The notes beneath the pieces were generated by a model that was not told where the DNA came from, ran no database searches, and was given only the letters and a program-made list of their open reading frames with translations. DNA of 52,920 nucleotides from Priapulus caudatus. Lineage: Eukaryota. The stretch spans positions 374,564 through 427,483 of the forward strand of contig NW_014577067.1 of the NCBI RefSeq assembly GCF_000485595.1, in the 5' to 3' direction. Shown here in pieces: positions 8,381 to 52,920 of the stretch (its first letter is position 1; each line of letters opens with the position of its first letter). A program made the translations under genes and the position numbers.

Positions 8381-9532
8381 AAGATTAATAACGTCCAACC
8401 CGTTTTAAACTTTGCACCCTTATTAATATGTCGAGTGTCTCGAGTAGGCAAGAACTATAGGCAATAATTTGACTGCATAGTTTAGTCAATTATTTTCGGG
8501 AACTATTGCACGAGCAAATTTTCACGCTATCTGTGGCATCATTGCTTTTTGATATGCAATAGATTATGATATCGCGATCAATATTTTCACATTTTCTAAT
8601 CAGACACCGGAAAAGTTGAGCCGGTATATAGGATCAATATATTTAAATATTTAATAAATTGTATATTTTCTTTACGTTTAATTTAATTAATATTTAACAA
8701 TTTTATCACATTTTTATACGGCTAACCTCAGATGGTAACGATGCTTAAACGGTAATCCATAAATCCATTAATCCATAATAATCGATATATAATCAGGAGT
8801 GAATCAAACCCTGTGAAATAGAAAGTGAAAATAATGTTGCAGGGGCGGGTACAGGATTTGTACCAGAGGGGGGGGGGGTCTTACCGTAACCCAAACTTGC
8901 GAGCACGCGAAGGGGGGGGTCTGGGGGGCCCTTCCCCAGAATTTTTTTGAAATTAGACCCCCTTAGATGCGTTTTCTGCGCGAGCAGGGGGGGTCCGGAC
9001 CCCCTGGACCCCCCCCTGCACACGCCCCTATGTTGTTTTTAATTTCATTCCTGATATAATGCATGCTTAGTATCAGCGGCTGGGGACAGAGCCTGCGGAG
9101 TACGTCAGCACGCAGCAGACGGCGATGAAACAGGTCGGCGACAACCGCAGCTGCAACAACACCGAGCCCGCGAAACGCATGCTCACTCCGACGACGTTTT
9201 CCGGCGCGATAGGCGGTCATCAAGTAGCGGGCAAGCAGCCAGTGCTGCCATTTCACCACGTCGACCACGGACGCCGCTACTTGGACACGACGCATTCCTG
9301 CGATTACAAGAACCCCAGCCAGTACACTCAACGTCCGCCCGCCGAAACGCGCGACCTATCGGGCGCCTACAGAAAGTGTCACTCTCAGTTTACGGACACC
9401 GACGGCCACTGCAGGACTGGACTCAACACTTGGCACAACGAGTCGGGAATTTATGGAAACACAGTAGTGAAGCGACAGGTGCTAGTGAGTAGGGACCCCA
9501 TCCTGCGCGGTTTCCCTACGACTCCGCCGTAG
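7957..9532 (+). CDS. CFAP95: Cilia- and flagella-associated protein 95 (C9orf135) homolog; exons 7957-8127 and 9071-9532; ~210 aa
   Basis: ERKGSMFLRSNHQKY..L.FNWHEAREA.P.QYDI, spliced in phase 0 to YQRLGTE, and C-terminal YRKCHSQFTDTDGHCRTGLNTWHNESGIYGN match remembered C9orf135 motifs (ERKGSLTLRS; YRRLGTD; SQFTD..G..R.GINTWHDESGIYAN). Confidence 0.88.
8137..8380. repeat. (AAAT)n plus long (GA)n microsatellite in CFAP95 intron
   Basis: Directly visible; explains ORFs 8104-8451 and 8135-8398. Confidence 0.95.
8840..9030. mobile_element. hAT-like MITE
   Basis: CAGGGGCGGGTACAGG / CCTGCACACGCCCCTA; flanking TGTTG repeated; G/C-run rich interior. Confidence 0.7.
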
Positions 9533-28181: not shown

Positions 28182-31140
28182 AACAAACACGTGCGCACGT
28201 ATAATATGTTTGTGGAATGCTATATATGATTGTTGAAAAGAGAAAATCGATGTTTGGTAATCGATGGTTGTAAATCTCAAATCTTATATATCGCCTAGCT
28301 GGCAAAGTATAGTTGTAATACATATATATATAGTGGTAAATATATGGTACACATATTATATGGTACACAAATATATGGTGAATAATGGTTTTTATTGCAG
28401 ATTGCTTTTAATAAAATATTCAAGATTTCATATCTTCATGAATTTGTCTAAGTGAATCACGTATCATTATTTGCATTAGATCCAATGTCTGAGGACGAGT
28501 GCATGTTTGTGGTTATGCTCGTACGCAAATCGAGACATAACGGTTGTGACAAATATTATTATTATGAGAATAAATTGTGAATACAAAATTGAAGGTGAAT
28601 AATAAATAAAAGTAAGAATAATATATAAGACGTAATATGCATGCAACTCAAATACATGTAATATAGTATCAACATATATCGTGTATCATATATCATACAG
28701 AACAATGTATATTATAACACACACGCGTGCGCGCACGCACGCACTTATACACACACACGCACGCCCGCACGCACGCACTTATACACACACACACGCACGC
28801 CCGCACTTATACACACACACGCACGCCCGCACGCACGCATATACCGTAATTAATAATCCATGATCAAGCATCATAACTAATCACAACGTGAGTAAATGAT
28901 ATATACGCGAATTATTTATGCTTCTTATATCGTATATGGTATGTTATCAGCATGTTATGTATATACTCATGATAATATTATATGATTTGTGCAACCCACG
29001 TTCTTGATTTGATCATTTGATTCACGTTAGATTATCATTCTTCGCTGCAGTCCCTTGGATTATAAAGCATTTTCTATTCTCTTTGTGAGGTTATAATATG
29101 ATTAATTATGTTGTTTATGCTGCAGACGATTTTTGGGTTCTGCTCACTGATCTCAATAATAATATTTTATTAATAAAATTTTATTATAGAGATCAGTGGT
29201 TCTGCCACTGGTTCTGCTGCTTTACTAATTTTTATTCGCTAGGTAGCAGCACCTACCTGAACCTGAGCCTAGTCAGAGCCAAGGAGCTACATATAACATT
29301 ATATAAATTATATATAACGTTATATGTATAGCTCCTTGGTCAGAGCTACCTCTAGTCAGAGCATATAAATCAGGCAGGCATGACTCATCAGCATATAAGT
29401 CAGCATATCATCAGCATATAAGTCAGTCATATATTATTTAATTCGATTTTTACCATAGTTTTTTTTATATGTGAACAGACTCACAAGTATAATTCGTACA
29501 CACTGTGAGAAGCACTAAAGCTGTGTGTAGTCTTAGAAAAATGCCATAAGGTTATAAATTAGCCCATGCTGGTGGCCGTGTTCCATTACCAATACCATGT
29601 TATATTACCAATATAATCCTAACAAGCAAGTATTATCTTTAAAGTTCAATTTAATATATTCATAGACATTGTAATTATGGACAATATCAGTATCATTACA
29701 ATATATCCCAAATACATACAATATATTAAATGATTACAATATTTATATATTATAATATAATTATAAGTAGTAACACCACATTCAATCTGTGCCATATATA
29801 GTTTTTCAATAATTATACTGTAACTAGTTAATAAACACCTGATATATTTACACCAGGTCACATAAAAATAATTACAAATCTGAAATGTTAAGCCTTATAA
29901 CCCCTCTTAAGATTTCATTTGATCTAAAATGGATATGAATGTACTTATACAGAAATCAGCATTTTGAGGTGCCATATGAAATAACACCGCATTGTACATT
30001 GTGCATGTACATACACCCAGACACGGTTATTTCGTTCAGTTGTCAGACACGATTGGTCTGGCGATGAGCTCCTTCATGATCTCATTGCTTCCGGCGTAGA
30101 TTGGTTGGACTCGCGCGTCGACATATGCCCTGGCTATAGGAAATTCCCACATGTATCCCCAGCCACCATGAAGCTGAAGACATTGGTTTGCAATCTTGTT
30201 CTGCAGGTCAGATGCCCTGAGAAGACAAACACAGGAACGTTATACATTTTACACACTCACACACGCATGAAGTATATACTTGCCCCAGAGTGCCTCTTGC
30301 AATACAACATCACAGACCCTAAGGTATATCAGCTTGAAGTGCTATTACTTTGAATGCTGTTCTGGCTTTCTATTTCTGATTTTTATTTCTCTTTTTTTTT
30401 CAGTTACTAATGTCCTTTGTCTTTAATCAGTTAATAATCTCCTTGATTGTTGACAATAGCACCAATGTATGCAAATTTATAAACGTCAGTAACTTCAACA
30501 TTGTTGATCTTCAGCCCATCTTATGACTCAGTGCAGACTTTCAACACTTCTGGTTAACCTTGAGAGGCCATATTAGCCTATATTCATGAGTTAGTTTAAC
30601 AAAAGAATAATTTCGCAAGTTATAATTGCAATGATGATAGTGAATACCATCTTGACAAGAGTGTGCATATAGGAAAAATCTTATAGCTATTTGGAAATAG
30701 ACACAGAGCACAAACAAGAGATCAGCAGCAATAGGGATGCAGTGGTTTAACACCAAAAAGTAGCTTACAGATATTTAGCCATGGAGACTGAGTAGTTATC
30801 TAGAGTCTCATGCTGATGCTGCTGCAAGCACTGGTCGTAAAATGCTCTCATCATACATATTTCACTCTTCATCTCGGCCAGCTTGTGTTGAACTGTCTGC
30901 AATTAAACAAAATAATGGCATAATGACATAGCCAATATAGCTTCAATGAATGATTTACAATATATGTATATATATATAATTTTAAATATCAGTATTGAAC
31001 TCACATGTTGGTATGTAAAAGGTGTTTGAATAAGAATATATACTAGAAAAACACGGATACATCTCTTGACGTGTTACGTTTGACTGACAAGGATGACTGG
31101 GGAGGTTTTAGAACGAAATGTCGTACCTTTCGATGTAAAT

Positions 31141-31185
<45 letters not shown>

Positions 31186-32306
31186 ATATATATACTTATC
31201 GTGTAAGAGGATTATTAAACGTCAACTACTTACACCGAGTGATGCTGCGTCTCGCACGTGTCAAACTCCTCCTCGTCGCAGCTCTCGCCACCCGAACTGC
31301 TATCGGTCGCCTCCGAGTCGAGCACCCTCTCCAGGTGACCGAGGTTGGCGGCGAGGCTGCTCGACACGCAGCTGATCTCGTCGCACAGGTCGTCGCCGAG
31401 GGCGACGGTGACCTGGTCCTCGCTGTGAGCGCCGCGACTGCTGTACAGCCGCTGACGCTGCGAGCCGTGGGCGCTCTCCAGCTTCCGCACGAGGTTGACG
31501 AGGGCCGCCGTCGACAGGTTCTTCACGTCCTCGCTCTGCAGCAGCTCGGCGTGAAAGTCGCTGCTGTTCGGCGCGCTGCAAGTCCTCGTCGTTGATCGCA
31601 CGCACGACTGCAGGTTCTTGCGCTGGTGCTGAACGAACGCCACCAGCTGTTCGCGCACATGCGTGTTCGTCTGCATCGTCTGCAGCCGCCGCAGACGCTG
31701 CAGCAGCCGCTCCGCACGTCGTTCCAGGTAAACCTGCCGCTTGCCGGCGTCCGCGAGCCTATCACACACGAGAGACTTCAGCAAGGTCAGTTCGGATTGA
31801 TCGTCAGTATCCATGGCACTCTCGTCCAGCTGTGTGGGAGAGACAGCTTCTGGCTGCTGAACGGTGGTCCTATTCTCGGCCAAAATGCTGCTGGCGATTG
31901 GGGATGACGAAGAACTGTTGCGTTGTCCCGTCATGTCTAGCTTTGGATTGCCGTTTGTGTTAGAACCACGTAGGTTACACGTCGCTTTCTGAATTCTATT
32001 TCCTCCCGTTTTCTGGTCGACGTCCATTGTGTTCACAATGCCAAAATTGTTGTTGGTCGCTGCAAGCTTCCGCAGTAGAGCCGGGATGTTGGCTTCTTTC
32101 AACTGACTGTAACCGTTGTGCGGCCGCACCAGAATCTGTGCCTTTTGAGCCTGCACGGGAGAGACAGCCCGCTCGCTTGCTGTGGGACTCTCACAGTCCC
32201 GCTCCCTATCAGTTTCCGGCGAGCTCTCAGATGGCGGCGGTGATGGAGGAAGTCTGAAACCTGAATGCACGGACTGCCTAATTGCATCCGACAATGCAGG
32301 CGCCAT
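12811..32306 (-). CDS. KANSL1: KAT8 regulatory NSL complex subunit 1 (KANSL1/NSL1); exons 32306-31234, 26047-25251, 25126-25003, 24262-24180, 22916-22469, 21453-21330, 20608-20350, (18531-18503 tentative), 14201-13940, 13007-12811; ~1130 aa
   Basis: MAPALSDA start; LLQRLRRLQ coiled coil; [59 protein letters not shown]-like CAARTRP; PEHE domain [51 protein letters not shown]. Splice phases checked; only the link between 20350 and 14201 needs a small extra exon or an alternative donor. Confidence 0.93.
15705..17048. mobile_element. Helentron/HINE-like non-autonomous repeat with nested hAT-like element (~16176-16517) and internal duplications
   Basis: Start GAAAGTGTCAGTGACACTGTAGCTCACC and end CCATGGCAATAGCTCATCTTGACGATGTCAAGGCGAGCTAAAAA (hairpin plus A-run, (GGAC)n) recur at ~35536-35890; 63-bp tandem duplication ~16310-16461; ~150-bp duplication 16518/16820. 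Confidence 0.65.
17849..20169. mobile_element. HINE-like repeat with nested insertions
   Basis: AACAAGAG..GCTCATCTGA start; end GCATCTGACTTCGTCAGATGAGCTAAAAA; 3' part (20025-20169) recurs at 35050-35202. Whether both ends belong to one copy is inference. Confidence 0.5.
18696..19163. mobile_element. hAT-type MITE
   Basis: TAGTGTTG...CACCACTA; 8-bp TSD GGAATTTC; ATCGAT-rich subtermini. Confidence 0.8.
20909..21307. mobile_element. hAT-type MITE
   Basis: TAGTGTTGTCA...TGACATCACTA; 8-bp TSD TAGGTAGG. Confidence 0.85.
22209..22406. mobile_element. hAT-Charlie-like MITE
   Basis: CAGGTGTTCTTAACC / GGTTAAGAACCACTG; TSD CGCTAGAC/TGCTAGAC. Confidence 0.8.
26863..28840. repeat. Microsatellite cluster: (CAGG)n ~26863-26928, (CA)n 28131-28181, (CACG/CA)n 28718-28840
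   Basis: Directly visible simple repeats. Confidence 0.9.
30036..30896 (-). CDS. ACADL: ACADL exons 8 (30896-30769) and 9 (30216-30036, stop codon), lying inside the first coding intron of KANSL1
   Basis: [33 protein letters not shown] | [59 protein letters not shown]; canonical splice sites; not in the ORF track. Confidence 0.95.
31146..31194. repeat. (TA)n microsatellite; a second one at 43158-43196
   Basis: Directly visible; both lie in inferred breakpoint intervals. Confidence 0.9.
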
Positions 32307-33833
32307 CGCGAAAGGACGGGACAGCCTCAATGGCCAGCGTGAACACATACAAGTGGTAGAATAGCAGATGCAAGATTCTCCACCTGATGATCCATAACGC
32401 CCACCTGGATGTCTCCCACCTGGTGAACGAAAATGCACATCAACATATAATTACAAATATGCAAATGCTTCAACAATATCACAACTCTGACTTTCGGAAT
32501 TATTTCAAGTTAAATTAGGCTTTAATTCTGCTGCAGACTAAATTACATTCTTCAATATGAACAATACATAAACACCAGATTTTAAAAATTGACCATGTGC
32601 GATGATGAACGATGCCACTGTTTGAGCTACTTCTTGCATCAGTGACACGAGAACATTTGCAGGGCCTAATTCAGGCCATTTTTCATACTGAATACGGGCC
32701 TCCCAAATTACGTCCCCTAGCAAAATGCCCAAATTACAAAATTCATAAAACGCCCAAATTAGCAGAGCTCTGATGCAGATCTCCATGTTTCTATCGTCAT
32801 GTTGTAGGCACTGTTTTATAATAAAATGCTCATATAAGATCTATAATCTATTATCTGAATAAAATGTGTCAACCAAACGTCCAATTTAACGTGATAGATA
32901 AGTATATATACAATTTCCCTGTACGGTTCCCCGATTAGGCTAGATACATAGATTAAGCCCCGATTTGTAAATGGTTATTCCATGTACCACAGAGAGAGCG
33001 ATAGTGCAATTCATCCTCTCTTATATTAATGATTACAAACCCCACATTCCATGTTTATAAAATGCAAAAAAAGTTCATAAAGCAAGTTATGTGAGCGAGA
33101 GACAGATCACAGAATGGCATCATCTCAATGTGCACATACGGTAATCAATAATAAAACACTATCTATAAACATGTTAAATGTCAAAAATATTACACCTGTC
33201 ATAGCTTTCCAAATACAACATTTATTCACAATGATGACAATAGTTGTAGGCTGAAGCATAATTTAGACAATTCACAGAAATTATATGGAGGCCAAAGGTG
33301 ATAACAAAGTGGCAGTCAGCCTGTAAAAGTATCTCTGGAACTAGCCACAAGTTCCCTTCTCGCTTAACACTACATTGGCCTACGACGTGCAACAGTCGGA
33401 GAGCCTGGTCGGTTTACTCTGGAACTATAATTAATGTGAGTACCCTTGAAAGTGGGTGACGAATCAGATGACGTAACATCATGAGTTATTAATACGCTGT
33501 GGCTATATGGCAGGCAGCCGGGCAGTCTTCGATTTCCTAAATGCCCTTAAACCCTAACCCTTGTTTACTTGAGATAATGCTGAAAATTAAAAAATGCCGT
33601 GCATTTAGGAAATCGAAGACCGTGGCCGGCAGCCGTCAGATATATGCCGGCTGCCGGGCATATAGACACTCTGTTATTAATATTATTGCGTCGTATACAT
33701 ACACTACGACACTAGGCCTACAATACATGCATTGCTACGACTCATGATGACTCGAACACGAGTGGCGTTTATCAAGGAACGAAGGCGTAACAAAATATCT
33801 CTGGCATGCATGCTGTTGTCCAAACTAACGTAC

Positions 33834-34920: not shown

Positions 34921-36179
34921 TGATCGCAAATATTCGAACCGAAAATAACCGAACCGAAATGTGAAAACCGAAAACCGAACCGAACCGTGAAGTTGTGATT
35001 CGTTGCACCCCTACCTTTGACCCCCAGCTTCGACATCCCAACTCGTTTTGACGATCCCCCCGACGTCCCGAATATCATGACCGTACGTCGAGCGGTTAAG
35101 ATTTGTGCCCAACTGTTGACGCACGCACGCACAGACGGCCGGACGGACGCACGCTCATGCGATTCTACAAGCTGCATCTCACTATGTCAGATGAGCTAAA
35201 AATGAAATGACCGCCGATTTGAAGGCAATCCGAAACACCCGACTCTTATAAGATGATGCAGTCCTCCTTTCTTGCCATGGACGTGATAAACGTGGCAATC
35301 CATGGTTTGAGTTGTCCAAGTGGCGCCAGTCAGTTTCATAGCAGCAAGAGATTTAATTGATATTGTGACTCACTCGTGACTAAAATAGGGTTCGGAAGAG
35401 TTATTAGGAATTTGGCACTATTGCTTTATCAGTTTTTGCTAATGGGTGAATCTATACTAAGTAGTCCTATAGTAATATTGATATTTATACTTATACAAAA
35501 CATTATAAAAATAAGTATAAATATTAAAATAAATGAAAGTGTCAATAACACTGTAGCTCACCACAAAAAAGGACACAAATGAGTGAGTGAGAAGAAGTCA
35601 GTTTTAATTGAGCAACCATCGACGTACATTATAGAAACGAAATTGCCATCTGTATATCGTATAAATAATTTATAAACCAAAATGAATCACAATTTGTGAC
35701 GGTAGATGGCGCTATACCCGCTTTGATGTTTCTTAGCATAAATCATTATATCATAATAATAATAGTATAAATCATAATATGTTCATAGCAGGAATTTTGC
35801 ATTATCGTTGACCCTAGCCAAATGTTGACGGACGGACGGACGACGACCCATGGCAATAGCTCAGCTTGACGATGTCAAGGTGAGCTAAAAAGAGGATATT
35901 CAAAAATCAACCCTTTGCATATAATTATAACGCATGTGAACCAATTACATCACAGGCCACATAACCAGAATCATCCTGCTAATTGCTACCAGATGTTGCC
36001 TGCTCTATCACTACTTCCTACACATACCAAAGCCACCCAGACCGATGACAAACGTCTTCATGAGTAGAAACTGGTTCTATGATACCAGACAGTTTATATA
36101 TAGAGATATATATATAGTACCAGAAGTTAATAAAGACAAAGGAGTTTGACACGTATTTGGTACTGATTTCACTACATAC

Positions 36180-36632
36180 TCGGTCTGTAGCCCTTGGCTG
36201 GAAAGTGGTTTTGCGCAACTTCTCAGATCGTGCGCTTTGAGTGGCGCCACCGTCGTTGTAATCAAACTGTAGTAGTTAGTTTTAAAACATTTTTTTTTAA
36301 TATTTCTAATGGTGATTGAACCATGAAACTTTTTATGTAGCGCAATTATAACCTAAATTAGCTGAAAATAACCCTAGAACCTAGAGGCTACTGTTCCTTT
36401 AAATTAATAAATAAGAAACACCCTCGGTCTGTAGACCTTGGCTGAAAAGTGGTTTTGCGCAACTTATCAGATCGTGCGCTTTGAGTGGCGCCACCGTCGT
36501 GTAATCAAACTGTAGTCGTTAGTTTTAAAACATTTTTTAATAATATTTCTAATGGTGATTGAACCATGAAACTTTTTATGTAGCGTAATTTTAACCTAAA
36601 TAAACTGAAAATAACCCTAGAACCTAGAGTAA
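36180..36632 (+). mobile_element. Two orphan RIGHT ends of a TTAA-flanked (Kolobok-like) element
   Basis: ~205-bp direct duplication (36180-36390 / 36423-36630); first ends CCTAGAGGCTACTGTTCCT|TTAA at 36398; second is interrupted by another element. Confidence 0.75.
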
Positions 36633-36635
36633 AAC

Positions 36636-37308
36636 TGTTAGGGTTAGAGACGAATTTTTGGTCGAAATTTCACTACCCACTTTATTTGATAGATCGCACC
36701 CATGGGCAGCTATGTATACGTAGAAATTATGTATGTACCCTCCCAAACAGATCCAAATCCCCTCATTAGACAATTATTAACACAGGAATCATGGAAAATT
36801 TAGAAAAGTGCTAATATCTCCATCGTTAGAAATGCTGACTTGTCAAACGCTATTTCTCGAAACTCACAACTCCGATTCAATTTTTTTGTTACAGTTTAAT
36901 GCTAACATATGAAAGGAAAAAAGTGTCCCTGTAATTTTTTTTAAATATTTTATTTTAAAAGTTATGGCTCTTTGTTTACGAAATTGTTGCGTTTTGAAAT
37001 TCACTACAAATTTTCGTACATCTTTTCAACTTCTTTCCTAAATTAAAGCATTTAAACAAAATTCCAGGGACACTTATGGTTAAACGTTTAGGTCCCAACT
37101 CTGCTGTTTCAGAGAAATAACAAAAAAGCATGTTTTTGTATAAATTCACAATTTTTGCAGTCACTTAATTAGCAATAAATTTAAAAAAAAATTTCATCGA
37201 GAGCGTAGAGAGACATCTCTCGTATGTATACATGGATATGAGTTTGATTGAATTAGATGAGTTATGTTGCAATGCCCTTTACAGTGTTACACGTCCATAA
37301 CCCTAACA
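36636..37308. mobile_element. Inverted-repeat element inserted in the Kolobok-like right end
   Basis: TGTTAGGGTTA ... TAACCCTAACA termini. Confidence 0.6.
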
Positions 37309-37525
37309 GTATCCTTAAAGAAATGTTGTAAATAAATCGTGACAAACTATTTTTTAATAACGAGTCCTACACGACGTGAATGCTGTGATTTGCTCTTCTA
37401 TGTAAGTCTATATTACCACATCAACTTCCCAAGCCACATGACTGGCCAACGTGAGCCAAATGACTGGCCAATAAACACTAACCTCGATGGGGAGTTAGTT
37501 CAAACCAAGATTATAATTTTCATAT

Positions 37526-37828
37526 TATCAGAATTAGATAATAGGAAAGGAGTGTGACTTCAATAAACAAGGGAAATTCGTCATTTACTAGCCTTAGAAT
37601 ACCTACTTAGAATGGAGAATCGTGTCGTACGTTTTAGTCTGTATCTCCGGATTGCGGGCGTATACAAGGAAACGATTTCGCACGATGCTAGGCGAATGTA
37701 CCGTGTACGATTTGAGCTCAAGTTGGTTGAGTTACGCGCAGTAAATCGTAGGTATTCGAAGGCTAGTAAATGACGAATTTCCCTTGTTTATTGAAGTCAC
37801 ACTCCTTCTCTATTATCTACTTCTGATA
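37526..37828. mobile_element. MITE with ~80-bp terminal inverted repeats
   Basis: GGAGTGTGACTTCAATAAACAAGGGAAATTCGTCATTTACTAGCCTT and its exact reverse complement at ~37758-37805. Confidence 0.8.
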
Positions 37829-37968
37829 CTATATATATTCATATACCAAGTTATACGAATGGCTGGTGCACACATACTGTAACATGTGTCACATGACTGG
37901 CCACAGTGTTTGAGTAGAAAGCTTGCCTTTCCAAGCCTCATGAATCATTGCCAAGACGGAAACCGCAC

Positions 37969-40062
37969 CTGTGCTTTCAAGCCAAGTTTCTTCAGTTTCT
38001 TGCCCTTCTTGAACCCTTCCATACCCTCCTCCACCAGAAACAAGCTGATACCACGGGCCGCACTCTTGGCCGTTGGGTCTGTTACTGCTACGACAATAAC
38101 AACGTCTGCCATGTGACCATTGGTAATGAAGACTTTGCTTCCATTAAGAATCCAGCCATCTCCATCTTTTTTGGCATTGGTTTTAATGCCTTGAAGATCA
38201 CTGTTATGGAAAAGTAGAGCTGGAAGATATTCTTGAGAAATATATGATCTATACAAATATATCTGTTCACGTCTATTTCATACCTAGTACATTGAAAATT
38301 CCACATAACTCCTTCAAGAGCCTATTATGATATAGGTTTAATTATATCACTACTATAAATTAACTTTTTTCTATATATACTGGTAAAAGTTGAAGCAATG
38401 GTAATATTGAAGCTGACAACTATTTTGTGAACTGACAGTTTGAAACGGGGGATTTTTGGCCCAGCATGATAGCTGCAAAGGTGACATGACAGCTTGGCTT
38501 GGACATTGCACATGCTGGGCACATTACACAGCAAATAACTCGGAAACTAACGGTAGAGAATGTTTACTCTCACCTGCCTGCTCCAGGTTCTGTCATGGCA
38601 ATAGCTCCTATTTTCTTTCCAGCTGTCATGGCAGGCAGGAACTTCTCTTTCTGCTCGGTAGTTCCGTAGTGACATATATAGGGCATCACAATGTCTGAGT
38701 GCAAGGCCCATCCTGGGCCTGATGCGCCAGAATACCCCCTGGAATTAATTATCAATACAATTACAGACAGGTCGGTCAATCCATAGTGCTTCAAGGACAT
38801 ACGATTTGTACCAGATGCACCTTTGAAACCATTTTTCTCATTATTTTATCCTAACAAGTTGGTACACAATTGCTATAGTTATTTGATAAGTACACAAGCA
38901 GCTTTGTTTAAACATATAGTTTATAGATGATTTTAAAATTAACAGCATTCCTGCAGAATGGTTGCATTGGTCTGTCACTAGCTGTGCACTGCAGTCATGA
39001 CTAACATCCATGGGCAGATTAATCTTCTCCCAAACTACTGCCCTATTTGCAACCATACTTACCATCCATGCTCAGTGGGGGTAGATAGAATGTCAGTGAG
39101 ACCACCTCCTTGCTTACACATTTAAGCCAGTGTTATTGATGTAGGTAAGTCAGTGTCATTCTAATAACTACAGGTGACATCTATTAAATCTACTAATAAG
39201 ATGAGCGAGAACCCATTAAATTCTCATCTAATATGAAGGACGTATTTCTTACCAAATTCAACTAGGAAGGTTAATTACTGCATTATAAGCAAAATCACAA
39301 ACTCCCACACAAGCACAATCACACACATGTGCGCACATAACCACATTTAAAACAGTAAAACACATACACACAAATAGCTATTAACTCAGATAAGTAATTA
39401 TACTTACTGCTCATCCCACACGATAGAGCTTGTGAGGATATCACTGCCAATGCCTCCCTCCTCTGCAGGTGTACTCACTCCCAACAGTCCAGCTTCACCC
39501 GCCTTCTCCCACACCTCACGGCTTACTTGTCCATCGATCTCCCACCTGCAACATTTGCCATTTTGCATTTGTCACATAATATTACTATCAAGAGGTAAGG
39601 CCTACCTAAGGAGGTATACCTAAGGTGTTATTAGCTCTTGTTACTAAGAATAAAACTTACTACTTAATTTCAAGATTCGCCTGTTTCTGTCACTCACCTG
39701 AAACATGCAGAGTTATACGACCAGTATAGCATCTTGGGATGCGTGAAAACAAAGCTTCATGTCAATGATGCGGCATGACCAACAATAGTGGTAGCGAGCG
39801 AATCACATTTGATTCTAAACAGCGCTGCACAAAATTATGTCCAGAAAACAGCACTAACCAAACGAGCGACTTCTCAGTACCCGGGTCCAACAACAAGATA
39901 CGTAAAACTCACTGGTCGTGATAGGGCATGACCTCCTCTTGGAAGAAACGGCGCACATTCTTTCGAAAAAGATCGTGCTCATCGGAGAAAATACGTCGAG
40001 TGCCGATGTCGGTGAGCTTTTCCGACTGGCCCGGCTCGGGCCGATCCATGTTGCAGCATCCT
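37969..40062 (-). CDS. ACADL: ACADL exons 2-5 (40062-39913, 39545-39408, 38738-38574, 38200-37969)
   Basis: KLTDIGTRRIFSDEHDLFRKNVRRFFQEEV; WEIDGQVSREVWEKAG; GPGWALHSDIVMPYI..GAIAMTEPGAGSDLQGIKT..LNGSKVFITNG..GISLFLVE..KLGLKAQ; phases 2,2,2,0 consistent. Confidence 0.96.
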
Positions 40063-40425
40063 CTAGACAAATTAATAGTGTCTATTAGATGCAATTAACC
40101 TCTCCAGGTAAACAGGAATAAATGACATACAGCCCATTACAGCGTCATATATTGCACAAATATATACAACAATTAACCAGTCTCTCGTTTGCTACAATAC
40201 ACGTAGACAATCACAACACTGTCAGCAAAGATGAGAAATGGAGTTGATATTAATTATTATTAGGTTTCTAAAAATCGGAAGATTTGGCATTCTGCCACTA
40301 TGCAGTCAGTCTGACGATCTAGGTGTTGAAAGTGCACATGTATGTGTGTAGAACTATTTAACACAAATTTGGAAGCTGGGCAGAAAAGAACAAAAGCAAC
40401 CATATCTTTTAAGGCACATGGTTAA

Positions 40426-40682
40426 AGGGAGAGTTTACTCTAGGTTCTAGGGTTATTTTGAGCTAATTTAGGTTATAATTACGCAACATAAAAAGTTTCA
40501 TGGTTCAATCACCATTAGAAATATTTTAAAAAAATGTTTTAAAACTAACGACTACAGTTTGATTACAACGACGGTGGCACCAATTAAATTAGGTATCTGG
40601 TAACAAATACGTGTGGGTATAGACGATTTGTTATACAGTAAGTACAGTTGTATGCAGTAAAATCCTAGAGGATACCGTCCCT
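40426..40682 (-). mobile_element. Complete short copy of the TTAA-flanked Kolobok-like family
   Basis: TTAA|AGGGAGAGTTTACTCTAGG...CCTAGAGGATACCGTCCCT|TTAA; one half matches 36250-36398 and the other 44189-44285 (both reverse complement). Confidence 0.8.
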
Positions 40683-40808
40683 TTAAAAAAAATCAACCAG
40701 AAATGTACCCTCTAACCCCGAGTATGGGTCAGATCAAGAGTAGATAATAACACATTAACTATGTGTTATTATCTACTCTTGGTCAGATAAAAAGAGATAG
40801 AAATATAC

Positions 40809-40900
40809 CAGTGAAAAAAAATACACGGGGGCTCGGGGCGATTTTTATGCACTCGAGCTTGAAAAGTAGCCCCCGAAAAATAAATAATATTTTTTTCCCT
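40809..40900. mobile_element. Minimal hAT-type element
   Basis: CAGTGAAAAAAAATA / TATTTTTTTCCCTG; 8-bp TSD AAATATAC; longer relative inverted at ~45670-45821. Confidence 0.8.
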
Positions 40901-41753
40901 GAAATATACTAATATAGCATTATGCATTAATTATGTTATCAATTGGCAAAATACCAGGTGTAGTGTGCGTGATAGCAATACATAATGTCAGGCTGTGATG
41001 ACATTGCAATTGGTTATTTCTCTTGCCTAAGTTCCGTAGTGTATGATGCCGATCTAAACATTGAAAAAATGGTGTCACGAGAGCATCAATACGCGAGGAG
41101 AGGCTTCTCTCGCCACGATACACATGCACTAGGAGTCTATGACAAGTGGGCTGTCAACATCTTCACCACACTTCAATCAAGGGTTATTGTACACACTTTA
41201 GGTATGTTGAGTGACATGGGTTAAAGGCATGGGGAGGTCCTTGGTACTATTTATATATTGATATTATGTGGTACCGTTTTATTGACACACCAAAGTTCAG
41301 ACTGACCAAAGTTCAGATACTATATATATCATGTATATGCTATAACCAGAGGTTCATTTGATATAACTGATATGAGAAACCTTTAAACCCTACACTGTAT
41401 GGCTCAGGTTGTAAATGCAATAAAATAGATAGACGCTGTTAAAACATCAACATTAATAACATTTATGTTATGATTGCCTTTGCTGCATACATTTCTCTAC
41501 ATAAAGTGGCTCATACAGACTTGATGTGCCACTTAAAATTTAATTACACACACAACATGGTGACGTTGGGGAAACTATAATCTCCGAATGAAAACTTTTC
41601 ATAGTTCAAAGGACTATAACAAAGCTAGACCAAAACTAAAGACCACTGCCACAGGAGTTTTTCAAACAGAAAAGCCAGTCCAGCACAAAGTTCAAAAGTA
41701 CTGACTCTGTCAAAACACTCACCTAAATACAGATTACACTTAGTACAGCTCAT

Positions 41754-42005
41754 AGAGTCTATGTCCCCCAGGGTACTGCCAGAACGTACCATGGGTACGG
41801 TTCGGTATACCGGAACGTACCCTGGTAACTATTTGATATGGTTAGGGTTAGGGTTAGGGTTAGGGAGTAGGCGTAGGCGACTCCCTAGACTCGTTAGTGG
41901 AGTAGGCGAGGTACAGTCCGGCATATTAGATAGTACCAGGGTGTTCCGGTATACCGGACCGTACCAAGGGTACGTTCCGGCAGTACCCTGGGGGACATAG
42001 ACCCT
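41754..42005. mobile_element. Palindromic MITE with internal (TTAGGG)4
   Basis: ~63-bp arms TCTATGTCCCCCAGGGTACTGCC../..GGCAGTACCCTGGGGGACATAGA; TTAGGG x4 at 41842-41865. Confidence 0.8.
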
Positions 42006-43154
42006 CTCAGCCTTAGTACAAAGTACATGCACCTCGTACACATACGTATGCAGACATTTTTATATAAACCAGTATCATTATTTATGACTCAACAAATTTA
42101 AACGTGGTTGCTTGAACATTGGTCAATAGTTAGTAGTGAAAAATAAATATATCTTTACATTGGGAGCGCCCACGCTACTCTAATCCAAAGGCAAACCCAA
42201 GAATGGATTTATGCCAATCATTATCATGGTAGCCTGAACTGAACATCTACGCATAAATTTTACTAGGTTCACATGCAGGCCATTCTAGCTGTCTTTGGCT
42301 GGTCTATGTTGTGCCATGCTACCAGAACTTTCAGAATGCTACTTTCAATTTAGACAGTGTGTTGACTTAAATTAAACAATATCAAAAACTAGTGAGGTCT
42401 GGAGCATTCTATATGGCAGATGAAAATGTTACTTTGGGTAGAATTTTGAGTGTACCATTGGTTGTATATTTTTCATCTAAATCTGGAGTTAAAACATACA
42501 GAAAAAACACACGAACTCTTGGATATTTGAAATGATTTTAGGAGTTATGGTGTAAGGAACAAGAGGTCTGAGCTATAACACCACAGGCCATGTTTCACTT
42601 ATTGCTCAATAGCGATAATATTTCTCCTCAAAGTAAAAAATAGGTGCATTCCTTCAGGGGAATACCGGTGGTGAAGGGGAACTAAGGGGCACCAAACCAC
42701 CTGGCTTGCTTTCACTACCAATATGTCATCATTGTGTTTAGGTTTTTTCAGGCTCTAACCTGGAGACCAAAAATTTATCTAAAGTTAGCTTCTGTTTACA
42801 TATGGATTATAGAATGAGATATATACAAAAAGATCTTCTCTTTGTTCATCAAATTTTTGCTGTAGCACCCGAGTTCATTGTGAACTGCTGTTGAAATAAG
42901 GCTGGATGCAGGGTGAACTGATTGCAGGAACTAGGAGTAGGACATTTTGTATACAACACATGTGAATGTCAATGAGCTGTCTAATGAACTCATGTGATAA
43001 CCATATATATGTTACACATGTCAATGTCCTGCCTAGCACTAGAACTATAGCCCTTTGAGTTTGATCTGCCAAGAGCTATAGTTCTAGAGCTATGTCCTGC
43101 CCAATTTGTCGGTAGCTGACTGCATATTTATCATATAAATTTTAATTACGGCAA

Positions 43155-43204
<50 letters not shown>

Positions 43205-43289
43205 TATATATAATATATATTATTTATAATTTTTAAATCCTGCTTTTGAATGATATCAAGCATCCTGTTGCTAGTGTGCACATTCATAC

Positions 43290-43705
43290 CTGCAGACTTG
43301 AGATGGTACGCTTAAATGCCTTTCTTTGCTTAACATAGTCCCTAGTCATCTCAAACATGGCCTCAGAACTGGACACACCTACTGCTGCCACGATCAGTCT
43401 CTCCTGTGGAAGCTCCTACATGAGACATAATTCATTAATAAACCCTTGTTTCATTATAAATGTCACGAATAGAATATGATATTCGGTTTGTACCTAGGAT
43501 GAAAAACCTTTTAATCAGGTATCGGCCTAACCTAATTCTAGTTTAGCATATGCAGAGCCATCACTAACAATTGGTTTTAACACTGAGAATATAGTCGAAT
43601 GACCTTCACTCTCACCTTCATCAGATACATAAAGCCATAGTTTTCCTCTCCCAGCAGTGCACTCGCAGGCAACTTCACATCTTCGAAGAACAGCTCAGCG
43701 GTGTC
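43290..43705 (-). CDS. ACADL: ACADL exons 6 (43705-43616) and 7 (43415-43290), located upstream of exon 2 in transcription direction
   Basis: DTAELFFEDVKLPASALLGEENYGFMYLMK | ELPQERLIVAAVGVSSSEAMFEMTRDYVKQRKAFKRTISSLQ; continues exon 5 (..LKAQ, phase 0) and leads into exon 8 (TVQHKL, phase 0). ELPQERL carries the LCAD-type catalytic Glu. Confidence 0.95.
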
Positions 43706-43826
43706 CTGAAACACACACACGTCAATAAGTAGCCATTGCTAGATAAGCTAGTGTCAAAAACCATCCCAAAAGCATTCAGATTGGTCTACAAGAGCTATAC
43801 TACTAGTATATACCAACAGCCATTAA

Positions 43827-44343
43827 AGGGATAGTAGACTCTAGGATTTTACTGAATACAACTGTACTTACTGTATAACAAATCGTCTATACCCACATGT
43901 ATTTGTCATCAGATACCTAATTTAATTGTTATAATTAATTACGCATCACTGCTACGAAATTTGAACGGCGCCATGACACCCGCGACCGTGCTGCCACCCT
44001 GAAAAACTTGCGTATTTGCCAATTTATTTTGCACGTTACAGACCGAGGGCTAATCACAAAGATGCAATTATATTCATACCTAAATGCTATTTAACCGAAC
44101 GATGTTCATTTGAGGACAAATTTATCCATAATATAACTGAAACTATATGTCGTTTATAAGATATTACAATTAATCCTTTTGCTTTTAAAGGGACAGTAGC
44201 CTCTAGGATTTTACTGCATACAACTGTACTTACTGTATAACAAATCGTCTATACCCACATGTATTTGTCACCAGATACTTAATTAATTATTTACACATCA
44301 ACGCTACGAAATTTGAACGGCGCCATGACACCCGCGACCGTGC
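43827..44343 (+). mobile_element. Two orphan LEFT ends of the TTAA-flanked Kolobok-like element
   Basis: TTAA|AGGGATAGTAGACTCTAGG at 43827 and TTAA|AGGGACAGTAGCCTCTAGG at 44189; ~160-bp direct duplication. Confidence 0.75.
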
Positions 44344-47300
44344 TATTATTTTGCCATAAGGTAGTATGATTATGCATGACACGAAGTATTTGCTAGTCTA
44401 GTACTGGAGAAATTAGCGTTTGGATGCGCATTGTGAGCCTTTAAGTTACGTTGCACCCATGCTGGGTTTAAAAATTAAAACTATTTTACATTGAAACTAT
44501 AGTTAGAATGCCTTGTTTTTATTGTTGAATCCCGCAGTTTTTTTAAATAAACGCTGCGGTGGTAAAATATCTGAACTACTTCACCCCCGGAGGAATGATG
44601 TGTATGAATCTTAGCGAGTATGACGCTCCAGCTGATTGTAGTTTTTCGCACGTGTTTTGCATAGCAACCGTTACTATGCAATTGCAGGCAAACGCATGTG
44701 TTTACACCTTACTTATCATGACCATCTGTATGTGATAAAGGCGAGAGTTAACCTCGTCATCGCTGGGCTTTGTTAGCCGAACAAAAACTTCTTCGGGAGA
44801 TAACGTACGGGAGACGCGATCCCTGTCGCGCCACCTTCCAGTTGCTGTGTATGCGAATTTACCACTTGGCTACGACACACGACGGTAAATAACGTGAAAA
44901 CCATGTCGTGCAAAAGTACGATTTAAGTCAAAACGAAGAATGCTACGCGGTTTGTAATACTACCGGAAGATGGAATAAGGACCAGTGAACAAAAGAAGCT
45001 CATGTTTGTATACATTTTATATTTTTACTCACATCAAACTCGTACGACAAAATTTAGTGAAATCAGTGCCAAATACGTATCAAACTCCTTTGTCTTTATT
45101 AACTCCTGATACTGATAGTACCAGTCTATGTATTGTACCAAGAGATAAATAATATACACAGAAAGGAGATTTGCCAAAGAATGGCCGGTAGTCAACATTT
45201 GATAGTCTGAAGTATAAACTGTGTTGAAGGTTCTGAATTGTAAGTTAATGAACTATTTGTCAGAATTCTCATAGGATGTTTAACTAGTACAGGAACAATA
45301 CATCACAAAACCATAGCCCATGTAGTAACACAGTTGAGATTTTATATAATAGGCTATTAATAGCACACGAGCTTGGCATTGCTTATAATTTTATTGTTCG
45401 GTGAACTGAAGCAGCATGTTGGTTCAAAGCAGTTTTGTCAAATTTTATAGGGAAAAGCATTTTGGCAACATTTTTAAATGTTTGAGAATAAGATCCAATG
45501 AATAATTAACACGACATTATAAATCCCTGCCTAAGCATTACTGGTCATATAAGTTTTTATAATCTAGTGATGAATAATAAATCCAATAAAATAAATTAAG
45601 GCACAGCAGCCAGTGATTTCGTTACGAATGCCAGCATGATAGCCCATTACACTGATAGCCTAGCAGTCAATTTATTTTTTGGGGGCTACTTTTCAAGCTC
45701 GCCCGCATGAAAATAGCACTCTAAAATTTGGTTTCCATTGAATTCTATGCAATTTTCCGGGGCTCTTTTTGGCATTTCGGGGGGCTAAATCGCCCCGAGC
45801 CCCCGTGTATTTTTTTCACTGCACTATATAGTGTTAATTAATACTGTTATGCTCAAGCCTCAAAAACACGGATACAATTATATTTCCTCGCCCCTTTCTG
45901 ATTTACTGTTGTAGCATTACACTTAGCAAAACGTTTTAGCTACAAAACTCTAGGACACAAATAACCCCAAAATATCCGCCAAATCGTTGCTCTCAGGTGA
46001 AAAAGCGAAGCATTGTATTGCAGATATAGAAGGATTTTAAAAGATAGCGGCAAGAGTAATAGTACCTATCAAACATTCATGAATGAACCTTTTCATTATC
46101 TTTTATAGTAACAGGCCCAAATGCTTTTGCAAGAGGCCGTGGCAGAGTGCGGGGGGGGGGAGAATCCCCCCCCCTAAATTTTTTTTCAAACCTAGATGTT
46201 CTGAGATGCAATCTGGTCTATTCTGAGCTGTAGTAAACAGACACATTTGAATTACAGTATGGTTCTTTTTTCCAATTTGGTTTCTCCTGGGCCTAGATTC
46301 ATCATTGGTACGTAAGTTAACGTCCATAGGCAGGCATCCTACGAAATGCGTACGTAACGTTCCTGAGGTTAATTCATCAAGCCGTCAGGACTAGCCCGTG
46401 CGTAGGCATATCGTTAATGAGTTGCACATAACCCCGTTAGTAGCAGCCGCATTCTTTCCTCGCTGCAGTATTTCATGTGACACCGTTTGTTGCCATACTC
46501 GCAGATAGGGCCTGCATACCTCCCAAAGTTATACTCGGCCAGGTTTTTAACGCATTCTAACTCTAAAACTGTTACGTTAAAAATTCTTAAAATATTTACA
46601 TAAACAGGCAAGACGGTTGTCATTTTGAATACGATTGACCTAAGATACCTTGACTCGATTGCAACACTGGCTGGTCAAATATAGACAATATGACGCGGGC
46701 GATCTAGCGGATGTGGTAGCAACTTTCGTGTGCATTATTGCTACTGCACTAAATATTTTGATTGTCCTCTCAGGAGTATACAGCAGAATGCCACCGGATT
46801 TGTATAGAATGCGGAATCTTCAGTGCTCGAAATAAGCGTTGTCCGGTTGTCCGAGACAACCAGAAATTGCGCCGGACAACCTAACCAGTCTGAGACATTG
46901 TCCGGTGGACAACCAAAAAACACTATCTCTAACCCTTACACTAACTCTAAACCGACTCGGCTATCTTATATACGCGTGGTACCCAATTAATCTATGGTGT
47001 ATAACCTTTTGCTTTCAATATTTTACATCTGAACTGACAATCAATCCCATGCAACCAACTGGTATAGGCTAGCTGGCACAATAATGTTCAGTTTCATACT
47101 TCAAATCCGAGTGTTTTCTAGCTCATCAACAAATCTTAATCGTGAATTAAATCGTGAATAATATAAAAATATGGGACCAGCTGCTATTTCCAACACTGGT
47201 ATAATATCATATGTCAGGTTTTCTGATTTATGAGAGGTGAACTCGATTTGAAACCAGCAAACCAGCAAGTTTCCAAAATTTTCTGGGGAAGGACCCCCAT

Positions 47301-52379: not shown

Positions 52380-52606
52380 GTACGTTTTCTATCCAGCAAT
52401 ATTCAATAAGTTAATTTCTCATCTTAGCAAACTCGATAATAGCAGTGTCAGTGTCAGTGACAGTGACTGTGTCAGTTGACAGTGTCATGACTGTGTCAGT
52501 TGACAGTGTCATGACTAGCTGTCAGTTGACAGTGTCAGTGACTGTGCAGTGACTGTGTCAGTTGATAGTTGACAGTGTCAACTGACAGTGTCAGTGATGG
52601 CCGAGA

Positions 52607-52892
52607 CTATACGCACGGCGGCCGTGTAGATAAGATTCAATATGGCTATACGCACGGCGGCCGTGTGGCGGACTCAATATGGCTATACGCACGGCGGCCG
52701 TGTGGATAAGATTCAATATGGCTATACGCACGGCGGCCGTGTGGCCAACTCAATATGGCTATACGCACGGCGGCCGCGTGGATAAGATTCAATATGGCTA
52801 TACGCACGGCGGCCGTATGGCCGACTCAATATGGCTATACGCACGGCGGCCGTGTGGATAAGATTCAATATGGCTATACGCACGGCGGCCGT
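52607..52892. repeat. Tandem array of alternating 39- and 37-bp units (7.5 units), preceded by a (GTCAGTGACAGT)-type low-complexity tract 52443-52596
   Basis: CTATACGCACGGCGGCCGTGTGG-[ATAAGATT or CCGACT-like]-CAATATGG; unit starts 52607, 52646, 52683, 52722, 52759, 52798, 52835, 52874. Confidence 0.9.
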
Positions 52893-52920
52893 ATTAGTAG
52901 AGGTTCTAAGCACATGGAGT

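Follow-up and report, generated by a model that had tools for sequence, protein, structure and literature searches.

Two nested TTAA elements split at the tip-to-tip ends of a third transposon family in the ACADL locus of Priapulus caudatus

The stretch of 52.9 kb from contig NW_014577067.1 of Priapulus caudatus analyzed here (hereafter the window) harbors the gene ACADL for a long-chain acyl-CoA dehydrogenase (ACAD), the exons of which do not follow each other in coding order. In the intron between exons D and E, two miniature inverted-repeat transposable elements (MITEs) of a TTAA-flanked family, one inserted into the other, are both divided into halves about 7 kb apart. A proper nest is obtained only if the block at 43.8-45.1 kb is placed to the left of 36.1 kb, and the same order restores the succession of exons D and E; hence, the break occurred after both insertions. 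The split nest supports, independently of coding sequence, the order demanded by the exons, and it shows that the block with the two exons E and F formerly sat beside the rest of ACADL. The outer breakpoints, 36116 and 45113, are the tips of two arms of a different, TA-flanked family, here called T-type. We lean, somewhat beyond an even chance, towards a real DNA rearrangement that was cut exactly at these two tips, which stand head to head in the restored order, most plausibly by reversed-ends alternative transposition. An assembly artefact is the other explanation that deserves a detailed discussion. Either way, be it a rearrangement mediated by transposons or a misassembly, the event falls into a familiar class and does not represent a new mechanism.

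The split nest and the order of the ACADL exons

The self-BLASTN and repeat search of the window displayed the two elements as direct repeats on both sides of the split, 43823-43992 matching 44185-44344 (88.8% of 170 nt, E = 1.6e-59) and 36179-36386 matching 36423-36629 (94.7% of 208 nt, E = 2.7e-88). The left ends read TTAA/AGGG at 43819-43826 and 44181-44188, the right end is ...CTACTGTTCCT/TTAA at 36388-36402, and the terminal inverted repeat (TIR) comprises 19 nt. An internally deleted but complete copy at 40422-40688 ties both types of ends to one family, because in reverse orientation it is 91.6% identical to the right half (36236-36402) and 92.5% and 94.4% identical to the left halves (43823-43928 and 44183-44288, respectively). 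The initial annotation had already used this short copy as a link between left and right ends, which is correct for the TTAA halves, whereas a 62-nt pair that it had included belongs elsewhere (see below). The repeats on which it was based are real, as self-BLASTN, repeat search and profile scans agree, while its coordinates were 3-4 nt off. It had also named a finding that would refute a split nest, namely a local partner or target-site duplication for each half. A local partner was searched for with nhmmer profiles of both halves and was found for none of them in the window, which contains exactly three left-type and three right-type pieces.

TTAA-target (piggyBac-type) MITEs are characterized by TTAA duplications, short terminal inverted repeats and internally deleted copies. 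The family described here shares these traits, with TTAA duplications and terminal inverted repeats of the form 5'-AGGG...CCCT-3' beside TTAA, but the piggyBac-type assignment is suggested solely by the TTAA duplication. The right terminus of the outer element is degenerate (approximately at 36644) and is followed by TTAG instead of TTAA. Moreover, the variable middle of the family is enclosed by an internal 14-nt inverted repeat, in the outer element visible as TTACAGACCGAGGG closing the left conserved part (44039-44052) and its reverse complement CCCTCGGTCTGTAG opening the right conserved part (36423-36436).

Nested insertions, in which younger copies lie in older ones, serve as a relative clock. 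At this locus the reading of the halves as one nest is supported by nine contigs of read set X1 that stem from other genomic copies and represent the outer family without the inner insertion. In these contigs, the sequence corresponding to 44151-44179 (with a 4-nt indel; this match was judged by eye in the contig sequence preceding 36398) is joined directly to 36398 onward, i.e., it passes through a single TTAA into 36403 onward. They also confirm that the internal part of the outer left half is family sequence. Since the contigs run uninterrupted across the insertion point, the two outer halves were once one copy, into which the inner element inserted at a TTAA that now stands on both of its sides, and 44184 and 36399 were formerly one element-length apart. 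The suggestion of the initial annotation that the 43-45 kb block, moved to the left of 36.1 kb, yields a proper nest holds, since the TTAA duplications match and the order is that of the exons, and so does its dating of the break, because it takes the restored order to make both TTAA insertions complete. According to the self-BLASTN, no more than 5-11% divergence separates the element copies, which indicates that the break is young; hence, intact exons are no proof of selection.

The exon order leads independently to the same move. The stop-to-stop open reading frame (ORF) of exon D hit P0002, a public 231-amino-acid model from Priapulus caudatus named long-chain specific acyl-CoA dehydrogenase-like (99% identity, 78% of the query). 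With P0002 and three full-length ACADL proteins as tblastn queries, eight coding exons were located, all on the minus strand, where they follow each other as E F, A B C D, G H. When joined from A to H by their coordinates, they give 1,197 nt or 398 codons with the sole stop at the end, AG...GT is present at every intron, and the product aligns without gaps to ACADL of Lingula (273 of 395 residues identical) and Branchiostoma (283 of 394). The restored D-E intron would comprise 3,261 nt. A presequence exon upstream of exon A was not found. On the chromosome order as assembled, a collinear mRNA cannot be obtained by ordinary cis-splicing. Direct joining of D to G without E and F would keep the frame at the cost of 72 residues, which presumably include the catalytic glutamate of long-chain ACADs, so that an active enzyme would need E and F. 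The public 231-amino-acid model does not show such a D-G splice and terminates in the intron past exon D. Among public proteins, none of the four matches to exon F exceeded 65% identity, and protein searches with exons D and F retrieved no transcript-derived full-length ACADL of Priapulus caudatus.

The TA-flanked arms at the breakpoints

The segments 36116-36177 and 45113-45052 form an inverted pair with 91.9% identity over 62 nt (57/62, E = 2.9e-18). The initial annotation had regarded them as the ends of a third nested transposon. Judged by its sequence, the pair belongs to a different, TA-flanked family and not to the TTAA family, and it does not represent the ends of a nested element, because its tips would touch each other in the restored order (TACT/AGTA). 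Accordingly, of three nested transposons cut in half, two TTAA elements are nested and split, and the situation should better be described as two nested TTAA elements split at tip-to-tip ends of a third family.

TA-target (Tc1/mariner-type, Stowaway-like) MITEs are short, non-coding elements with TA at their tips and long TIRs that reside in TA-rich tracts. The T-type family, which may belong here, shares the TA at every tip, the long TIRs and the TA-rich surroundings. In the alignment of four arms (A1) the tip motif is TA/YCAGRAG; TA precedes YCAG in four of four arms and the similarity stops there. The outer tips at 36116 and 45113 are defined in the same way, since the similarity between the two arms and to the complete reference MITE ends at these positions. 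The TA is palindromic and AG-TA/TA-CT is possibly part of the TIR, in which case the TA would not represent a duplication. Only four T-type arms exist in the window (nhmmer, E = 1e-15 or better; the next match has E = 0.23). At 36177/36178, the arm with its tip at 36116 passes with its inner end straight into the right half of the inner MITE. In the present order, the two arms face outward like a normal TIR pair around the 9.0 kb of 36116-45113, with the flanks AG-TA...TA-CT. Together with a second TA stretch at 36095-36115 and the TA-rich tract between the A-D and E-F blocks, this places all three junctions at T-type tips or TA repeats, and the TA stretches at 36095-36115 and 43157-43235 look as if one tract had been split. 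The coordinates of all features are compiled in Table 1.

Other candidates for T-type ends were rejected or stay ambiguous. That 44345-45113 represents a complete T-type element, equipped with a separate left arm, is not supported; the best local alignment of 44330-44450 with the arms gave z = 2.4 and 8 of 200 shuffles were as good. The 8-mer AGTACCAG at 45117-45124, 3 nt past the tip 45113, repeats the 8 nt with which the arm at 36116 begins; the tandem CTGATA CTGATA at 45106-45117 directly precedes it. Taken as a possible third T-type arm, the beginning of the right flank gave z = 4.0 in one of four arm comparisons (0 of 200 shuffles) and z = 1.4-2.9 in the remaining three, and nhmmer reported no T-type arm near 45117. 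This 8-mer may be what is left of another end, a footprint or a chance match. The right-flank start and the terminus of the MITE that occupies 41741-42018 do not resemble each other significantly (z = 1.3).

Table 1. Coordinates of the repeat elements and ACADL exons in the window
Feature	Position	Strand	Remarks
Outer TTAA MITE, left half	43823..44180	+	Conserved 43823-44052, internal 44053-44180; TTAA at 43819-43822
Inner MITE TTAA target duplication, left	44181..44184	.	Partner 36399-36402
Inner TTAA MITE, left half	44185..44344	+	Self-BLASTN, nhmmer
Inner TTAA MITE, right half	36178..36398	+	From family position CTCGGTCTGTAG to terminus ...CTACTGTTCCT
Inner MITE TTAA target duplication, right	36399..36402	.	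Partner 44181-44184; uninterrupted family copies in X1
Outer TTAA MITE, right side	36403..36644	+	Internal 20 nt, then right half 36423-36644
Short, internally deleted complete TTAA MITE	40422..40688	-	TTAA on both sides, reverse orientation
T-type TIR arm	36116..36177	+	Outer tip 36116 (AG-TA/CCAGAAG), abuts TA-rich left flank
T-type TIR arm	45052..45113	-	Outer tip 45113 (...CTCCTGA/TA-CT)
Complete T-type MITE	37515..37839	.	Arms ~85-92 nt, 91-94% alike; orientation reference
Stretch between inner left half and T-type arm	44345..45051	.	707 nt; no window repeat, no Pfam match
TA-rich tract including (TA)n	43134..43240	.	Probable, inferred junction of A-D block and E-F block
ACADL exon A	39913..40049	-	tblastn; starts at ATG of the public 231-amino-acid model
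ACADL exon B	39408..39545	-	tblastn
ACADL exon C	38574..38738	-	tblastn
ACADL exon D	37969..38200	-	tblastn; end ...KAQ, donor GT
ACADL exon E	43616..43705	-	tblastn; DTAELFF...; successor of D in all relatives
ACADL exon F	43290..43415	-	tblastn
ACADL exon G	30769..30896	-	tblastn; AG...GT
ACADL exon H	30036..30216	-	tblastn; final coding exon, TGA stop at end

Proposed rearrangement, possible misassembly and hypothetical trans-splicing

The observations at the tips can be combined in the following scenario. The ancestral locus would have carried the right tip (45113) of one and the fractured left tip (36116) of the other of two neighboring T-type elements, tip to tip within the inner MITE. 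A transposase would have cut both tips; one of them would have become linked to a TA within the (TA)n tract that follows exon F downstream, leaving TA repeats at 36095-36115 and 43157-43235, and the other to a TA located upstream of exon A, after which the host ends thus set free would have been joined to each other again. An equivalent route would be a 9-kb circle that was opened at the abutted tips and then reinserted. The product of both routes would be the 9.0-kb unit 36116-45113, which looks like one giant TIR-bounded element with a circular permutation of exons A-F. The breakpoints lie exactly at the outer tips, and these tips are in reversed orientation once the order is restored, as is typical for reversed-ends events. 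The locus probably goes back to a common type of transposon-driven rearrangement and does not represent a gene that is split by design.

A similar reaction is known from maize, where paired reversed ends of Ac make deletions, inversions, chimeric genes and complex rearrangements, according to two reports (PMC1592236, PMC9910405). PMC3744419 belongs to the same subject. At the p1/p2 locus with Ac and fractured Ac, the configuration is the same, with a complete or partial end beside the fractured end of a neighbor in reversed orientation. Likewise, the transposase there cuts both tips, the ends join new targets and flanking gene segments are rearranged with breakpoints at the tips, as proposed here. 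However, Ac is a hAT element, whereas the family at the ACADL locus is TA-flanked and MITE-like and has no known transposase. Furthermore, the outcome here, unlike that of the single-target reaction, would be a swap of two adjacent blocks.

A rearranged chromosome is supported by reads. The comparison with reads and contigs spanned 35000-43149. In X1, a 283-nt contig with a depth of 17.9 matches 35865-36147 except for a single letter and consists of 251 nt of unique left flank and the first 32 nt of the arm. It spans 36115/36116, and the junction between left flank and arm thus exists in the reads. In the plain restored order, the left flank would be followed by the TA tract and exon F, an arrangement that would not yield this contig. 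A collapsed tandem duplication of the 9-kb unit would permit normal cis-splicing. This possibility, like a hidden second copy of exons A-D, is excluded by the equal X1 depth of unique words in the left flank (14.5) and inside the block (14.7, 14.1 and 14.6).

Several points weigh against the rearrangement at the T-type tips. The standard single-target reversed-ends reaction leads to an inversion or to a deletion plus a circle and does not give a block swap, for which two targets or two steps are needed. Read support is limited to 36115/36116, because the junction 45113/45114, the inner TA junction and the E-F block lie outside the read comparison, and the depth of the 283-nt contig is the mean over its whole length and no gauge of the depth at the junction itself. 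The contig may also not come from an independent animal. X1 is possibly the source sample of the window, because its contigs differ from it far less (13 letters in about 5,570 aligned) than those of X5 (38 letters and 23 gaps in about 2,160). Beside the junction, the window shows A at base 36124, where all reads and contigs of four runs carry G (for example 43/43 in X9 and 21/21 in X10); this could reflect a private allele or an error of the consensus. Transposase domains were found neither in 88 minus-strand ORFs from 36000 onward nor in 30 long ORFs of the window, with 8 of the 98 plus-strand ORFs from 36000 onward included in the scan. Finally, the intact exons with their AG...GT borders and gap-free 398-residue protein, and likewise the RNA reads over exons A-D, fit a collinear gene as much as a young break.

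These last features also count among the arguments for an assembly artefact, an explanation that we consider possible but not the probable one. It assumes a collinear chromosome (on the plus strand G, F, E, the nest, D, C, B, A) and an assembler that misplaced the E-F block of about 43.2-45.1 kb by 7 kb within T-type arms and (TA)n repeats. In draft assemblies, exons in a wrong order occur far more often than truly scrambled genes do, and small repeat-bounded blocks are often misordered. All three junctions lie in repeats or low-complexity sequence, and the repeat families have summed word depths of 1e4-1e5 compared to about 15 in unique bins, with the Logan contigs breaking there. In the restored order, the abutting arms would form a spacerless, near-perfect 62-nt palindrome, a natural end for a contig. 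ACADL is fully intact in the order A-H and exons A-D are expressed (RNA run X10 covers them with about 2.5-7.5 reads per strand column in their bins); the halt of the public model after exon D without a D-G splice, the missing exon F in public proteins and the base 36124 that occurs in no run point in the same direction. On the other hand, to account for the 283-nt contig, a collinear chromosome needs an extra, near-identical T-type element at this place and another one by 45114, but the only four arms in the window are all accounted for and the two arms at the breakpoints differ by 8%. In addition, the window contains no N, neither at any junction nor elsewhere, and the sequences at 36177/36178 and 44344/44345 have nothing in common that might have misled the assembler. 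A variant included in the same estimate assumes that one haplotype carries a real, transposon-made deletion, by which the left flank came to border the arm at 36116, whereas an orphan contig of the other haplotype was misplaced; it requires two false joins free of N.

A sub-case of the real rearrangement is that the permuted ACADL still works through trans-splicing. Two pre-mRNAs, or a single long one, would then be held together at their half-introns by the duplex of the 62-nt arms and by the complementary ends of the MITEs; D would be trans-spliced to E, and F subsequently spliced to G across A-D, which we regard as improbable. The pairing itself, as anticipated in the initial annotation, is feasible; folding of the arms and MITE halves gave -91.2 kcal/mol for the arm duplex on minus-strand RNA, compared to -18.0 +/- 2.7 for 50 shuffles, and complementary sequence is present in both half-introns. 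The splice sites and frames are all intact, and skipping of E and F, although frame-preserving, would be costly. However, such a duplex is the automatic by-product of any inverted repeat, the low divergence of the element copies speaks for a young break, so that intact exons are no proof of selection, and both arms on one pre-mRNA would flank E F A B C D, a situation expected to favor back-splicing into a circle. No read joining D to E was seen, with splice joints and the loose ends at the exon D donor not among the rows examined and exon E outside the read range.

Precedents for such a rescue exist. According to a preprint, Polintons reshuffled eri-6/7 of Caenorhabditis elegans, and the gene is rescued by trans-splicing with the aid of repeats derived from Polinton TIRs (bioRxiv 10.1101/2024.01.15.575659). 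Split introns of Giardia are a further precedent. The eri-6/7 gene resembles ACADL in that the exons of a conserved gene were parted by a transposon-mediated rearrangement and TIR-derived repeats that could pair the RNAs flank the break. In eri-6/7 the block was inverted and trans-splicing was demonstrated, whereas in ACADL the strand is kept, the order is permuted and no chimeric RNA was seen. A full-length enzyme from a germline-permuted ACADL, which would make it an animal metabolic gene rescued in the manner of eri-6/7 but after a same-strand exon permutation, is improbable.

Least of all, the four halves might be unrelated, separately truncated MITE insertions in mirror order by chance, an idea with hardly any probability left: both right halves start at one family position, CTCGGTCTGTAG, which at first sight appears as a family boundary, but in the X1 contigs, the continuity of which refutes it, the family continues leftward from CTCGGTCTGTAG via 36403-36422 and TTAA into 44151-44179, the inner element is bordered by TTAA on either side of the split, a local partner is lacking for every half, and the exons independently demand the same move.

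Significance and neighboring features

If the order of the window is real, the locus represents a clean natural case from animals in which a cut-and-paste transposon family reshuffled the exons of a conserved gene, with a break at head-to-head element tips by a reaction documented mainly in maize, and the gene could work only by trans-splicing. If it is an artefact, split nested transposons are still of practical use, since blocks in a wrong order can be recognized and put right with them in draft assemblies independently of coding sequence, and the truncated public ACADL model of Priapulus caudatus needs correcting.

Some further features of the window should be mentioned. The MITE at 41741-42018 has inverted arms of 76 nt and a loop with (TTAGGG)4-like telomere repeats (41838-41866), and with a summed word depth of about 4e5 in X1 and X5, compared to about 15 for unique sequence, it is among the most abundant repeats here. 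Another repeat family forms an inverted pair at 40815-40885, upstream of exon A, and 45670-45816 in the right flank (30 nt with 100% and 48 nt with 88% identity). The ACADL F-G intron contains an open frame of 406 amino acids on the minus strand (31233-32450) with no Pfam match, and the plus-strand frames of 154-182 amino acids overlapping it have no Pfam match either. An ORF at 9071-9529 on the plus strand matches Pfam CFAP95 (E = 6e-28) and marks a neighboring gene. Finally, a tandem array with a period of ~76-87 nt and copies 80-98% alike occupies 52443-52894 and reaches the window end.

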